Shown: positions 5,824-7,401, numbered from the stretch's first letter. The stretch: 22,249 nt of DNA from Candidatus Thorarchaeota archaeon AB_25 (GCA_001940705.1 MEHG01000028.1:1-22249), one strand, 5' to 3'. Translations and numbers: made by a program. The notes: generated by a model not told the origin, from the letters alone.

Positions 5824-7401
5824 TTGACAAAAGACCCCTCATTTGGACAATGTAGATCATGTCAATCAGACAGAGCCACACACATGTGTGAGGACTGTGG
5901 AGCAGCCTTATGTTCAGAGTGTCTTGAATCAAGATCTAGTGAGTACACCGTTTGTAGTGACTGTCATCACACCCTTGGTTCTCCAATGCCCGGTGAGAAA
6001 TTCGAAGAGTGTCCACAGTGTGAATCGAAGGAGCTAAGCAAGGGAAGAAAGACTGTAGACATATGTCCAAGATGTCACTCCTCAAGAGTAGTGTTTTTGG
6101 AAGACCGAAGAAGGACACTGGCCTTGGACATGCGACATGCAATAATGTCAATTCAATACGGGCACACAAAACTCAGAGAGTTCGCAAACAAGCTTGCAGG
6201 CTCAAAGAGACTACTTGTATCACTTAGGATGGCTAACTTTCTACATTATAGATGGATTGAGGAAAAGATTGAGAGCATGCAGAGTGAGCTCCCAGCTATC
6301 AAGAATAGAATTTCTAGCCAGGCCGAAATCATTGCGAAAAGGATGGCTGCTGAAACTAAAGACTTCATAGATTATACGAAGTGGAATCCTACGCAGTTCC
6401 CATTCATTGAAGGGATAACAAATAGGATCACAGAGATGGGCATATACTACAAACAAAATGTCGACGAATCACTTGAATCTCTTAGAGGAACGCTAAAGGA
6501 TGTCAGAAGACAACTTGATGGACTTGACTACTACAAGGGACAATTCACTGCATTCTATGAGTACGGTCAGCTTTCCGTTGGAGAACTTCCAGTCTGTGCA
6601 CTTCCTGAAATCAAAATTACAGGGAGCGATTTTCTCAAGAATGATAAGGCCTTTGGAACACTTTTCATCACCAATAAAAGACTCCTCTTCATTGCTGAAA
6701 CTGGACGAGTCCGGAAGAAGATGGAAACAGTCTTTGACTTTCCATTAATCTATTTGAAATCCATTGAAGAAGACGGACGATTAAGAAAGCGCGTAGTTCT
6801 GAAACTGAAACAAGGAGAAATCAAAGCATCCTGCTCAGATCAGACAAAGAAGGTTCTTCCGGATTATATTGAGATTGCTAGGAAGTTTGAGAAGTATATT
6901 CAAACAGACATGCAAAGGGTCAGGAAGATTGAACAGGCCGATATCAGTACAAGTGACGTGAGGCTCAAAATCGAAGGCATGGTTTACTCACTTCTTTCTA
7001 CTAATGACAGGTCACAGTACAATGAAGAAATGCCTTTGATGCGACCAGTTCCAAGACCTCGGGTCGGTGATTGGAAATCGACACCTATTCGTCATTATCC
7101 CTATGATGGCTACTACAGGAAACCTGAATCATTCCATGATGAGCTCGACCGAGTCATTGGACAATATGATCAGAGACCAAGTGCACGACCAACTTACGAT
7201 GCAAGTCCTAGAGTGCATTCATTGCAAAGAGATGCAGCATCAATTGAAAATGCAATTCGGGATGCAGTACATATGCTACGTAGTGGGCAGCTTGCTGCTG
7301 AAGACTTCATTAGGAGATACAGAGATCTGATGAGGGATTCGTATCACAACAGACGTGAGATTGAACGTGTCACAAGAGAAACTCGAGACAAGCTCTGGTA
7401 A
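5824..7401 (+). CDS. Uncharacterised multi-zinc-finger protein with a central PH-like (GRAM/GLUE-type) domain, encoded in the ESCRT neighbourhood
   Basis: 525-aa ORF.
- Start: TTG at 5824, preceded by GGAGG at 5812-5816 (7-nt spacer).
- Residues 10-84: six CxxC pairs, CRSC-x8-CEDC-x4-CSEC-x10-CSDC followed by CPQC-x14-CPRC.
- Residues about 100-250: predicted helical.
- Residues about 255-350: KAFGTLFITNKRLLFIAETGRVRKKMETVFDFPLIYLKSIEEDGRLRKRVVLKLKQGEIKA, a PH-GRAM/GLUE-like pattern.
- C-terminus: a Pro/Arg/Tyr-rich low-complexity stretch followed by a basic helix.

The coding call is solid. The function is inferred. Confidence 0.8.
   Translation: MTKDPSFGQCRSCQSDRATHMCEDCGAALCSECLESRSSEYTVCSDCHHTLGSPMPGEKFEECPQCESKELSKGRKTVDICPRCHSSRVVFLEDRRRTLALDMRHAIMSIQYGHTKLREFANKLAGSKRLLVSLRMANFLHYRWIEEKIESMQSELPAIKNRISSQAEIIAKRMAAETKDFIDYTKWNPTQFPFIEGITNRITEMGIYYKQNVDESLESLRGTLKDVRRQLDGLDYYKGQFTAFYEYGQLSVGELPVCALPEIKITGSDFLKNDKAFGTLFITNKRLLFIAETGRVRKKMETVFDFPLIYLKSIEEDGRLRKRVVLKLKQGEIKASCSDQTKKVLPDYIEIARKFEKYIQTDMQRVRKIEQADISTSDVRLKIEGMVYSLLSTNDRSQYNEEMPLMRPVPRPRVGDWKSTPIRHYPYDGYYRKPESFHDELDRVIGQYDQRPSARPTYDASPRVHSLQRDAASIENAIRDAVHMLRSGQLAAEDFIRRYRDLMRDSYHNRREIERVTRETRDKLW

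Follow-up and report, generated by a model that had tools for sequence, protein, structure and literature searches.

The gene at positions 5824..7401 (plus strand) of the window, by which we mean the whole 22,249-nt stretch of DNA from Candidatus Thorarchaeota archaeon AB_25 analysed here, belongs by its sequence to Znr_CC_PH_SB (asCOG cog.011556), an Asgard-specific family, and is its Thorarchaeota representative. [quoted passage not shown] The preliminary description of the window asked whether the family had been described before; cog.011556, which that 2024 paper described from sequence analysis, provides the answer, and what the window adds is a confirmed member, not a discovery. Three zinc units and all the other parts were found in the window protein. 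With a probability of roughly 0.7, we consider that this Znr_CC_PH_SB member acts as an early ESCRT-I-like adaptor, docking by its steadiness box onto ESCRT partners.

The open reading frame is real, conserved and coding. It specifies 525 aa from a TTG start to a stop codon at 7399-7401, and the start is backed by a Shine-Dalgarno-like GGAGG at 5812..5816 (plus strand, 7 nt 5' of the TTG), which favours the long form, as well as by the conservation of residues 1-20, C10 and C13 included. In several database annotations the protein begins at M21 (505 aa) and lacks the first CxxC pair. The frame had been noted as convergent with an ESCRT-III gene, with only 2 nt between the two stops, and the stop codons indeed lie at 7399-7401 and 7404-7406. 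Almost all of the 168 homologues of the protein come from Thorarchaeota. Counted over one-per-species genomes, its gene occupies 72 loci, comprising 70 full-length or near-full-length copies and the two halves of one gene split across contig ends, which upholds the frame as coding in relatives. The Rfam search gave no RNA families in the window.

Assignment to the published family relies on homologues beyond Thorarchaeota. A Thorarchaeota profile aligned with a profile of the other Asgard members, Lokiarchaeia included, over 516 columns that take in the steadiness box (hhalign, probability 100%, E = 4.5e-74). The homologue of Lokiarchaeum ossiferum lies directly downstream of the gene for ribosomal protein L35Ae and that of Promethearchaeum syntrophicum MK-D1 four genes downstream of it, and in two of three Lokiarchaeial records an ESCRT-IIIB gene follows 2-4 genes further downstream. 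The published cog.011556 locus of Lokiarchaeum GC14_75 contains L35Ae, a 650-aa Znr_CC_PH_SB protein, MetE and Vps20 (Makarova et al., 2024, Table S2). Homology to the listed member from this genome, As_004-p_01543, is thus shown indirectly, via the Lokiarchaeial homologues at the L35Ae...ESCRT-IIIB locus, whose lengths of 630-648 aa compare with 650 aa for the GC14_75 entry.

The published family is Asgard-restricted and ESCRT-linked, as is the window protein, and there is no material difference between them in these respects. The Thorarchaeota proteins are shorter (~520 aa versus 630-650 aa or more) because their disordered linker is short. The neighbouring ESCRT-III gene is of the IIIA class in Thorarchaeota, whereas that at the published locus is Vps20-like IIIB, and the first eight cysteines, described as two ribbons in the published family, could form either two ribbons or one B-box-like cross-brace in the window protein.

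These cysteines belong to an N-terminal multi-zinc module that had been recognized from 12 Cys in six CxxC pairs, and the translation confirms the spacing as C10xxC13-x8-C22xxC25-x4-C30xxC33-x10-C44xxC47, followed by C63xxC66-x14-C81xxC84. Zinc module 1 (residues 10-48; 5851..5967, plus strand) holds the first eight (C10, 13, 22, 25, 30, 33, 44 and 47) with B-box1-like spacing, and zinc module 2 (residues 63-85; 6010..6078, plus strand) is a Cys4 zinc ribbon, CPQC-x14-CPRC, followed by an invariant H85, with strands at 71-80 and 89-91 in the AlphaFold2 (AF2) model. None of the 12 Cys varies among 34 Thorarchaeota homologues (51-89% identity) or 17 distant Asgard homologues (~20% identity), which is far above chance, and nearly every full-length family match has six CxxC pairs within its first 110 residues.

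Zinc module 1 is predicted to bind two zinc ions, with a fold that is either a cross-brace or two sequential ribbons. Its Pfam matches to DZR (E = 6.9e-5) and B-box (PF00643, E = 0.034) are both below threshold; for three Thorarchaeota homologues a PF00643 match is precomputed. The spacing C-x2-C-x8-C-x2-C-x4-C-x2-C is one that we take to fit the B-box1 pattern. The profile search that had been suggested for the zinc region did return FYVE, RING and B-box fingers from the PDB, but only weakly, with E-values of at least 0.026. A FYVE finger was rejected, since the basic pocket R(R/K)HHCR, already reported as missing, is not in the 525-aa sequence and the Pfam FYVE match has E = 0.33. The NZF consensus is C-x2-C-x10-C-x2-C with a W/TF signature; an NZF reading was also rejected, the spacing here being x14 and the fingers being N-terminal and not inserted in the PH domain.

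Between the zinc modules and the PH domain the AF2 model shows a region that the preliminary description did not mention. Three long helices (92-137, 141-178 and 189-241; 6097..6546, plus strand) form a coiled-coil or helical-bundle stalk that is conserved throughout the family (block-mean pLDDT 56-92, mostly 76-92). At the turn between the first two helices lies a very strongly conserved patch, KRLLVSLRMANFLHYxWxE (residues 128-146; 6205..6261, plus strand), in which L131, S133, R135, M136, A137, F139, L140, H141, Y142 and W144 are invariant in the Thorarchaeota alignment; the distant Asgard members keep the corresponding R and H without, or almost without, exception. The patch may be a binding site.

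The succession of a B-box-like finger, a coiled coil and a C-terminal beta domain presumably resembles that of TRIM proteins. The protein might have nothing to do with ESCRT and be a general zinc-finger/coiled-coil/PH protein, such as a TRIM-like scaffold or a nucleic-acid-binding factor, that stands beside ESCRT-III in Thorarchaeota through frozen gene order. The weak and generic character of the B-box, RING and FYVE matches suits this reading, which we nevertheless hold to be quite improbable: the protein has no RING finger, no nucleic-acid-binding family reaches its curated cut-off in Pfam or NCBIfam, and its C-terminal domain, described below, significantly matches Vps23/TSG101.

The PH-like domain, of GRAM/GLUE type, spans residues 256-353 (6589..6882, plus strand) and includes FGTLFITNKRLLFIAE (residues 277-292) and FDFPLIYLKSIEEDGRLRKRVVLKLKQGE (residues 304-332). 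Modelled alone with AF2, it has seven strands and a C-terminal helix at a pLDDT of 84.4, and it is followed by two conserved helices at residues 355-391 (6886..6996, plus strand), seen both in the alignment and in the AF2 model. The top Foldseek match of the model in the PDB is the human Vps36/EAP45 GLUE domain (2hth_B, E = 7.5e-5, TM 0.49/0.57), followed by the MTMR2 GRAM domain, the yeast Vps36 PH domain (2cay), the mouse EAP45 GLUE-ubiquitin complex (2dx5_A) and Lam6; 2cay and 2dx5_A are within the top 18 matches, and Foldseek gives a probability of 1.0 to GLUE, GRAM and PH structures. Structure prediction and Foldseek, the checks that had been recommended, have thus borne out the proposed PH-like fold of the GRAM/GLUE branch. 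The top rank of GLUE is suggestive but not sharply discriminating, the E-values of PH folds in this comparison of a model being bunched between 7.5e-5 and 1e-3, with a small margin over GRAM.

In sequence searches the PH region matches Pfam bPH_3 (E = 0.0011) and GRAM (E = 0.025), both below threshold, and Pfam gives no PF11605 (Vps36 GLUE) match in the window protein. Among relatives, P0149 scores 22.0 bits against PF11605 (cut-off 24.1) and P0163 has E = 0.014, both below threshold; P0138 reaches 25.1 bits against bPH_3 (cut-off 23), and for Lokiarchaeial homologues matches to PF14470 and PF02893 are precomputed. The hairpin motif G-x-L-x-x-T-x-x-R-L-x-F is common to the window protein and GRAM/bPH_3, which are generic fold families without an ESCRT context and describe the domain, not the protein. 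The basic residues R286, K298 and K322 of the domain are conserved in the family.

A GLUE-like domain raises the idea of a receptor that would capture cargo tagged with ubiquitin or a ubiquitin-like protein, through the PH domain or the zinc fingers, and feed it to ESCRT. The EAP45 GLUE structures solved with ubiquitin (2hth_B and 2dx5_A) are among the top structural matches, and the zinc fingers of yeast Vps36 serve ubiquitin and Vps28 (Makarova et al., 2024, mBio 15:e00335-24). We regard this reading as very improbable, as Thorarchaeota are reported to have no ubiquitin genes (Hatano, 2022, PMC9192718), and the C-x2-C-x14-C-x2-C ribbon is neither an NZF nor located within the PH domain. On the same grounds we found nothing in support of ubiquitin binding, which the preliminary description cites for the GLUE domain of eukaryotic Vps36.

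The C-terminal domain, which had been missed, is what links the protein to ESCRT-I by homology. It is preceded by a variable, poorly conserved and predicted-disordered linker (residues 395-458; 7006..7197, plus strand), where the pLDDT is <50 at 395-436 and 447-458 and a short helix is predicted at 437-446. In Lokiarchaeia the linker is far longer and N/Q/P-rich, and distant members range from 480 to 1171 aa in total. The domain itself (residues 462-524; 7207..7395, plus strand) is a helical hairpin of the Vps23/TSG101 steadiness-box type, identified with a family profile and modelled by AF2 at pLDDT 80-90. Whole-protein searches of Pfam and the PDB gave weak matches only, and an NCBIfam search with the whole protein gave nothing meaningful; the signal required per-domain queries and family profiles. 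The steadiness-box family profile A3 matches yeast Vps23 in the PDB (2p22_A, E = 5.3e-9; 2f66_A, 3.8e-8; 2caz_A, 2.4e-7) and human TSG101 (6vme_B, E = 1.5e-5), and 19 of 30 family members individually match Pfam Vps23_core. Every Pfam match of the window protein alone is below the gathering score, including Vps23_core (E = 0.015) and Mod_r (E = 0.019). At the level of sequence profiles, the match to Vps23/TSG101 is statistically solid, and by this homology the protein groups with ESCRT-I instead of being a free-standing GLUE domain.

Vps23/TSG101 and the window protein have in common the C-terminal steadiness box, significant by sequence, and the helical stalk and flexible linker that precede it. 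They differ in the recognition module: the window protein has no UEV or UQ_con match and carries an N-terminal zinc module in place of the UEV domain, with zinc fingers and a PH domain as the recognition module and the PH domain set between stalk and steadiness box. Loki- and Thorarchaeia reportedly lack UEV-Vps23 (bioRxiv 10.1101/2023.07.25.550441). The steadiness-box protein is prominent in both lineages.

CdvA recruits CdvB in Thermoproteota. The window protein might correspondingly be a CdvA-like division-site anchor, whose PH domain and zinc fingers bind the mid-cell membrane while its coiled coil and hairpin recruit ESCRT-III and Vps4 for cytokinesis; the logic of an upstream membrane-binding adaptor with coiled coil and hairpin would be the same as for an ESCRT-I adaptor, and the cellular process would differ. 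The ESCRT-III gene is directly convergent in Thorarchaeota and Jordarchaeia, the reported lack of ubiquitin in Thorarchaeota weakens a ubiquitin-cargo role, the steadiness box has been noted as similar to the CdvA hairpin (Makarova et al., 2024, mBio 15:e00335-24), and some family members have weak C-terminal matches to Pfam CdvA (PF18822; best E = 2.1e-4, with P0134 at 0.0059 and P0126 at 0.014). We consider a division-site anchor unlikely, however, as the hairpin is much closer to Vps23 than to CdvA, with a far better profile fit to Vps23/TSG101 (E = 5e-9) and matches in 19 members versus 3 for CdvA, and the protein has neither the PRC barrel nor a recognizable CdvA-type winged-helix-binding peptide.

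The adaptor reading is also consistent with the neighbouring genes. The convergent ESCRT-III gene (7404..8021, minus strand; 205 aa) is of the Vps2/24/46 (CHMP1/2/3-like) class, with a Pfam Snf7 match at E = 6.5e-11 and CHMP1B as its best PDB match (2.4e-9), followed by CHMP2A and CHMP3. It is followed by Vps4 (8165..9382, plus strand; Pfam MIT, AAA and Vps4_C), a Vps25-like ESCRT-II subunit (9386..10123, plus strand; Pfam ESCRT-II, E = 5e-14) and a Vps22/EAP30-like ESCRT-II subunit of 263 aa (10126..10917, minus strand; Pfam EAP30, E = 1.9e-14). Comparison of EAP30 N-termini between loci indicates that translation of the last probably begins at the conserved MHERL, 11 codons inside the listed frame. 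Pfam finds no PH or GLUE domain in its 263 aa, in agreement with the earlier statement that the EAP30 protein of the window is without GLUE. Residues 18-74 of its frame (10696..10866, minus strand) are a candidate Vps28-N-like steadiness box (Pfam VPS28, E = 0.0098, below threshold), and an EAP30 N-terminal profile reaches Vps28 N-terminal chains in the PDB at E = 0.2-0.4, which is not significant. Residues 1-70 of KXH75178.1 from Thorarchaeota SMTZ1-45 have been matched to PF03997 with an HHpred probability of 99 (Makarova et al., 2024, mBio 15:e00335-24, Table S3); this protein appears to be the orthologue of the window EAP30, given the run of accessions with Vps4 (KXH75180) and ESCRT-III (KXH75181).

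In Thorarchaeota the order of these genes, with the family gene, Vps4 and Vps25 on the plus strand and ESCRT-III and EAP30 on the minus strand, recurs at all loci of sufficient length apart from L033, where the block is broken right after ESCRT-III and the family gene and ESCRT-III are still adjacent. The synteny extends over ~16 kb and includes housekeeping genes (ArgRS, PmbA/TldD and AspRS), so that on its own it says little about function, and a protein unrelated to ESCRT would be at home in such a stretch. Nor are there ESCRT genes within 10 kb of the family gene in lineage L080 or in the L. ossiferum assembly L075. Against the non-ESCRT reading, ESCRT-III genes recur near family genes in four separate lineages, and one clade has the zinc, coiled-coil and PH (Zn-CC-PH) module joined to EAP30 in a single protein. 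The family gene of Jordarchaeia has a convergent ESCRT-IIIB gene 100 bp downstream. The gene-neighbourhood comparison suggested at the outset therefore came out in favour of linkage, which recurs outside Thorarchaeota (Loki, Jord and the EAP30-fusion clade) with L080 and L075 as exceptions.

Three possible extensions of this pattern were discarded. The ESCRT-III paralogue is not the same at all loci, being CHMP1/2/3-like (IIIA-like) in Thorarchaeota and Vps20/32/60-like (IIIB) in Loki, Jord and the fusion clade, a difference that counts against the adaptor reading. The convergent 225-aa neighbour at L081 is not recognizable as an ESCRT-III protein. The LRR protein beside the Lokiarchaeial ESCRT-IIIB gene resembles the LRR protein of the window at the level of the repeats only.

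The fusion clade (P0149/P0246, P0273 and P0274; 601-610 aa) consists of Asgard proteins whose Zn-CC-PH module matches the Thorarchaeota profile at E = 1.1e-38 and in which an EAP30 module (Pfam EAP30, E = 1.8e-11) replaces the steadiness box. Their PH region matches PF11605 at E = 1.8e-4, and an ESCRT-IIIB gene is nearby. As read from the domain matches, this is a Vps36-like architecture, rare in Asgard. It may or may not be distinct from cog.002441, which has two winged helices, a steadiness box and three zinc ribbons (Makarova et al., 2024). The window protein itself shares with Vps36/EAP45 its zinc fingers, a PH fold with GLUE as top structural match and, presumably, a functional tie to an EAP30-family subunit. 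In Vps36/EAP45 the EAP30 winged helices are in the same chain, whereas in the window EAP30 is a separate gene, 2.7 kb away; and the zinc fingers of yeast Vps36 are NZF fingers inserted in the PH domain, whereas those of the window protein, which has no PF11605 match, are N-terminal and non-NZF.

Taken as an ESCRT-I-like adaptor, the protein would work as follows. The PH domain, through R286, K298 and K322, and the zinc module would recognize a membrane surface, cargo or a partner, and the steadiness-box hairpin would pack on its counterparts in other ESCRT proteins. Within the window the simplest partner to assume would be the N-terminal, Vps28-N-like hairpin of Vps22/EAP30, a pairing that we infer and that would copy the Vps23-Vps28 contact of the eukaryotic ESCRT-I headpiece; a comparison of the target steadiness box with the EAP30 N-terminus by hhalign was not significant (probability ~1%). 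A GLUE-like membrane module would then be tethered non-covalently to ESCRT-II, and onward to Vps25, ESCRT-III and Vps4, so that the complex would perform in trans the work of eukaryotic Vps36, which has its GLUE domain, zinc fingers and EAP30 winged helices in one chain. The literature searched contains no experiments on any Znr_CC_PH_SB member. An upstream membrane or cargo adaptor is the most likely role on the domain evidence, and it is reasonable that a GLUE-like function is supplied in trans to an EAP30 protein without GLUE, for which the natural Zn-CC-PH-EAP30 fusion gives indirect support. A bolder version holds that Zn-CC-PH is an archaeal forerunner of, or a parallel solution to, the GLUE-zinc head of Vps36, held non-covalently on ESCRT-II in Thorarchaeota through a Vps23/Vps28-like steadiness-box contact with Vps22, which would make ESCRT-I and ESCRT-II one complex. 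We find this doubtful; if the forerunner reading were true, the fusion clade (P0246, P0273 and P0274) would be a concrete intermediate in the origin of Vps36.

Among prokaryotes, the nearest relatives of the machinery that remodels eukaryotic membranes are the Asgard ESCRT systems, and the question at stake is how these are directed to membranes in the absence of ESCRT-0 and, in Thorarchaeota, reportedly also of ubiquitin and UEV-Vps23. Both the targeting idea and the family were published in 2024 (Makarova et al., 2024, mBio 15:e00335-24). What may be of use to experimenters is the solid steadiness-box match to Vps23/TSG101, GLUE as the top structural match of the PH domain and the natural Zn-CC-PH-EAP30 fusion. 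For the targeting step Znr_CC_PH_SB suggests itself as a candidate, and the family is found in cultured Lokiarchaeia (P. syntrophicum MK-D1 and L. ossiferum) and is therefore testable.

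The target is a 525-aa ORF with a TTG start (5824..7401, + strand), read from the sequence, lying tail-to-tail with a 205-aa ESCRT-III ORF whose stop codon is 2 nt from its own. A GGAGG motif stands 7 nt 5' of the TTG, and residues 1-20, among them the first CxxC pair, are kept among the homologues in our alignment of 34 sequences; the genuine protein is therefore the 525-aa long form. In several public annotations the gene is called from M21 (505 aa) or from a later position (415-471 aa), and these shorter calls drop the first invariant CxxC pair (window 5824-5883). Judged on sequence, the TTG preceded by GGAGG is to be preferred as the start. 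The names 'transposase-like protein' and 'ribosomal protein S17E', under which some sources list the shortened calls, look like annotation errors. The translation contains, exactly as stated, both the Cys pattern and the pair of PH-like strings given in the preliminary description, and sequence and Pfam bear out its overall picture of a Cys-rich ORF within an ESCRT block, convergent with ESCRT-III.

The full-length AlphaFold2 model (pLDDT 75) comprises zinc knuckles and hairpins (residues 10-91), three long helices (92-137, 141-178 and 189-241), a seven-stranded beta sandwich (256-336) with a capping helix (339-353), two further helices (355-391), a stretch predicted to be disordered (395-458) and a confident helical hairpin (462-487 and 492-524). 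Modelled alone, residues 245-395 reach a pLDDT of 84.4 and adopt a canonical PH topology. When this PH model was compared with the PDB using Foldseek, the top match was the human EAP45/Vps36 GLUE domain (2hth_B, E 7.5e-5, TM 0.49/0.57), and the other matches included the MTMR2 PH-GRAM domain (E 1.9e-4), the yeast Vps36 PH domain (2cay, E 6.4e-4), mouse EAP45 GLUE with ubiquitin (2dx5, E 1.2e-3), the Lam6 GRAM domain (E 2.2e-3) and BBS5. The whole-protein model retrieved the same structural families. The calls of a zinc finger and a PH-like GLUE/GRAM domain, made from sequence alone, were thus right, and the suggested structural check returned a predicted PH fold with Vps36 GLUE and GRAM among its matches.

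Per-domain Pfam searches of the target gave matches below threshold at the N-terminus (DZR 6.9e-5, B-box 0.034), in the PH region (bPH_3 0.0011, GRAM 0.025) and at the C-terminus (Vps23_core 0.015, Mod_r/Vps37 0.019); the matches are nevertheless consistent. Among the relatives found by profile search, P0138 scores 25.1 bits against the bPH_3 cut-off of 23, P0149 and P0163 match the Vps36 GLUE model PF11605 below threshold, and the Lokiarchaeial homologues carry precomputed bPH_3 and GRAM matches.

A search of 5.8 billion proteins returned 168 homologues, nearly all from Thorarchaeota MAGs; the 120 listed share 52-100% identity with the target, and most cover at least 95% of it. In the 34 of those taken into the alignment, the 12 Cys and H85 never vary, the helical and PH-like regions are strongly conserved, residues ~392-465 are variable and the final ~60 residues are conserved again. 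The most conserved stretch, KRLLVSLRMANFLHYxWxE (residues 128-146, window 6205-6261), sits where the first long helix turns into the second, and its R and H are retained even in relatives at only 20% identity. Searched exhaustively with a profile, 1.84 billion cluster representatives yielded 117 proteins (88 at E <= 1e-10), many of them 480-1171 aa long and only ~20% identical. These distant relatives keep the six CxxC pairs and the PH motif, and most of those read or aligned have a C-terminus similar to that of the target; the available labels are Jordarchaeales, Promethearchaeota (Lokiarchaeia), 'Asgardarchaeia' and 'Asgard group'. A second profile search added homologues in two cultured organisms, Promethearchaeum syntrophicum MK-D1 (644 aa, named 'PH domain-containing protein') and Ca. 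Lokiarchaeum ossiferum (630 aa). Profiles of the Thorarchaeota and other-Asgard members align over 516 columns, including the C-terminus, with an hhalign probability of 100% (E = 4.5e-74).

To characterize the C-terminus, we aligned the terminal 75-80 residues of 30 proteins, Thorarchaeota and distant members together, and searched the resulting profile against the PDB. It matched best the ESCRT-I steadiness box at the C-terminus of yeast Vps23, as seen in structures of the ESCRT-I core (2p22_A 5.3e-9; 2f66_A 3.8e-8; 2caz_A 2.4e-7), and of human TSG101 (6vme_B, E = 1.5e-5), with VPS37B at E = 0.14. Individually, 19 of the 30 members match Pfam Vps23_core. This homology ties the target to ESCRT-I and not only to a GLUE-like fold. 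The domains that the preliminary description named are right, and its adaptor idea is plausible, but it missed the steadiness box (profile against Vps23, E = 5.3e-9).

This family has already been predicted computationally and published: Makarova et al. 2024 (mBio 15:e00335-24, PMC10936438) define it as 'Znr_CC_PH_SB', asCOG cog.011556, with three zinc ribbons, a coiled coil, a PH domain and a steadiness box; they describe it as found in several Asgard lineages, with none in eukaryotes, and as probably ancestral. They propose a place for it in ESCRT-I and, drawing an analogy with Vps36, association of its PH domain with membranes. Their Table S2 places a 650-aa Lokiarchaeum GC14_75 member between L35Ae and, one gene beyond, a Vps20-class ESCRT-III. 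We find L35Ae upstream of the Lokiarchaeial homologues, directly in L. ossiferum and four genes before in MK-D1, and an ESCRT-IIIB gene 2.4-3.6 kb past the homologue in MK-D1 and one L. ossiferum record. By sequence and context we assign these homologues and cog.011556 to the same orthologous group, with the target as its Thorarchaeota member. Our literature search found no experimental study of the family, and the main text of Hatano et al. 2022, whose work includes a Thorarchaeota yeast two-hybrid set, does not mention it.

In the window, Pfam identifies Snf7/ESCRT-III (7404-8021, -), Vps4 with MIT, AAA and Vps4_C domains (8165-9382, +), Vps25 (9386-10123, +) and an EAP30/Vps22-like protein (10126-10917, -). 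Housekeeping genes lie on either side of this block, with ArgRS and PmbA/TldD upstream and AspRS downstream. The conserved Thorarchaeota EAP30 protein begins M-(H/Q)-E-R-L at codon 12 of the listed ORF, and the listed GTG start (10885-10917, -) is probably too far upstream. Across 72 Thorarchaeota loci the order ArgRS+ PmbA- TldD- TARGET+ ESCRT-III- Vps4+ Vps25+ EAP30- AspRS- is essentially fixed; since housekeeping genes belong to it, this synteny is weak evidence on its own. On the Thorarchaeota bin8 chromosome CP070658.1 (locus L033, 11558-21554) the block is broken right after ESCRT-III, leaving the target and ESCRT-III adjacent. The interrupting genes are unrelated (an unknown 1087-aa protein, a PLP-dependent enzyme and PPDK), and a short ORF of 123 aa, ~9.5 kb off, matches EAP30 weakly and below threshold.

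Linkage to ESCRT genes recurs outside Thorarchaeota. A convergent ESCRT-IIIB gene lies 100 bp downstream of the family gene in Jordarchaeia, the two are 2-4 genes apart in Lokiarchaeia, and in a clade of fusion proteins ESCRT-IIIB is one gene off, with EAP30, Vps28 and UEV genes 6-9 kb upstream; two records, L080 and the L. ossiferum assembly L075, have no ESCRT gene within 10 kb. The Thorarchaeota neighbour (window 7404-8021, -) is CHMP1/2/3-like (IIIA class), whereas those in Lokiarchaeia (L073 14353-15006), Jordarchaeia (L079 9606-10241) and the fusion clade (L077 12442-13089) are Vps20/32/60-like (IIIB), so the recurrent neighbour is 'an ESCRT-III gene' and not one paralogue.

Other genes nearby were also recorded. 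A Ras/Roc-like GTPase that is extended at length at its N-terminus (13486-14760, -) adjoins a 210-aa LRR-only protein (14983-15615, +), the pair lying a few kb away from the ESCRT block. Lokiarchaeia have an LRR-only protein of like size beside ESCRT-IIIB (L. ossiferum) or a few genes off (MK-D1) (L073 18656-19300, L076 16248-16886), its likeness to the window protein being at the repeat level only (E = 1e-4). In two other lineages, an Arf/Ras-type GTPase fused to roadblock or longin lies 1-2 genes from the family gene (L080 7757-8704, 11889-13673; L077 8065-8922), which in L080 also adjoins the gene of a Ribophorin-I-like protein; these neighbours too are trafficking genes of the 'eukaryotic signature' kind. 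A very large ORF (at least 2160 aa, 15770-22249, +) runs past the window end and combines a hydrophobic N-terminus with four Laminin_G_3 (concanavalin-like) domains, DUF2341 and a polysaccharide-lyase domain; its product is probably a secreted or surface protein.

The domain set and homology of the target are clear, and a role as an ESCRT adaptor is plausible. The PH domain, with family-conserved R286, K298 and K322, and the zinc module would recognise a membrane or partner, the disordered tether would supply reach and the steadiness box would pack on other steadiness boxes. The EAP30 protein of the window has a conserved N-terminal hairpin (MHERLHSELFASIATLDQLKKLYDLGAVD...) that matches Pfam VPS28 weakly (E = 0.0098). 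Table S3 of Makarova et al. 2024 (PMC10936438) gives the hairpin of KXH75178.1 from Thorarchaeota SMTZ1-45, which appears to be its orthologue, an HHpred probability of 99 against VPS28-N. Our hypothesis is that the steadiness box of the target pairs with this EAP30 hairpin; neither a profile comparison of the target hairpin with the EAP30 N-terminus nor a PDB search with the EAP30 N-terminal profile gave a significant result. Such Vps23-like/Vps28-like pairing would fix a GLUE-like head onto ESCRT-II. UEV-Vps23 is reportedly missing from Loki- and Thorarchaeia (bioRxiv 10.1101/2023.07.25.550441) and ubiquitin is reportedly lacking in Thorarchaeota (Hatano 2022, PMC9192718). Both absences fit an ESCRT-II-attached GLUE-like head, and given them the target may take the place of Vps23 while using another kind of recognition head. 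The ubiquitin side of the preliminary description is not supported.

A connection to ESCRT-II is also offered by the fusion clade. Its representative (P0149/P0246, MFX1485568.1, 601 aa; L077 10001-11806, GCA_048939465.1 contig JBHLPL010000001.1) is joined by P0273 and P0274 (605-610 aa, 64-75% identical). These proteins match positions 7-356 of the Thorarchaeota profile (E = 1.1e-38), a span that takes in the zinc module, the coiled coil and the PH domain; their PH region matches PF11605 (E = 1.8e-4), and at the C-terminus an EAP30 module, above threshold in Pfam (E = 1.8e-11), takes the place of the steadiness box. The clade may be cog.002441, which Makarova et al. 2024 (PMC10936438) describe as having two winged helices, a steadiness box and three zinc ribbons, a comparison made by description only. 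Zn-CC-PH followed by an EAP30 winged-helix module is a Vps36-like order in an Asgard archaeon, and on this sequence evidence the fusion ties the Zn-CC-PH module functionally to ESCRT-II. A bolder and less likely reading is that the Zn-CC-PH module documents the origin of the Vps36 head.
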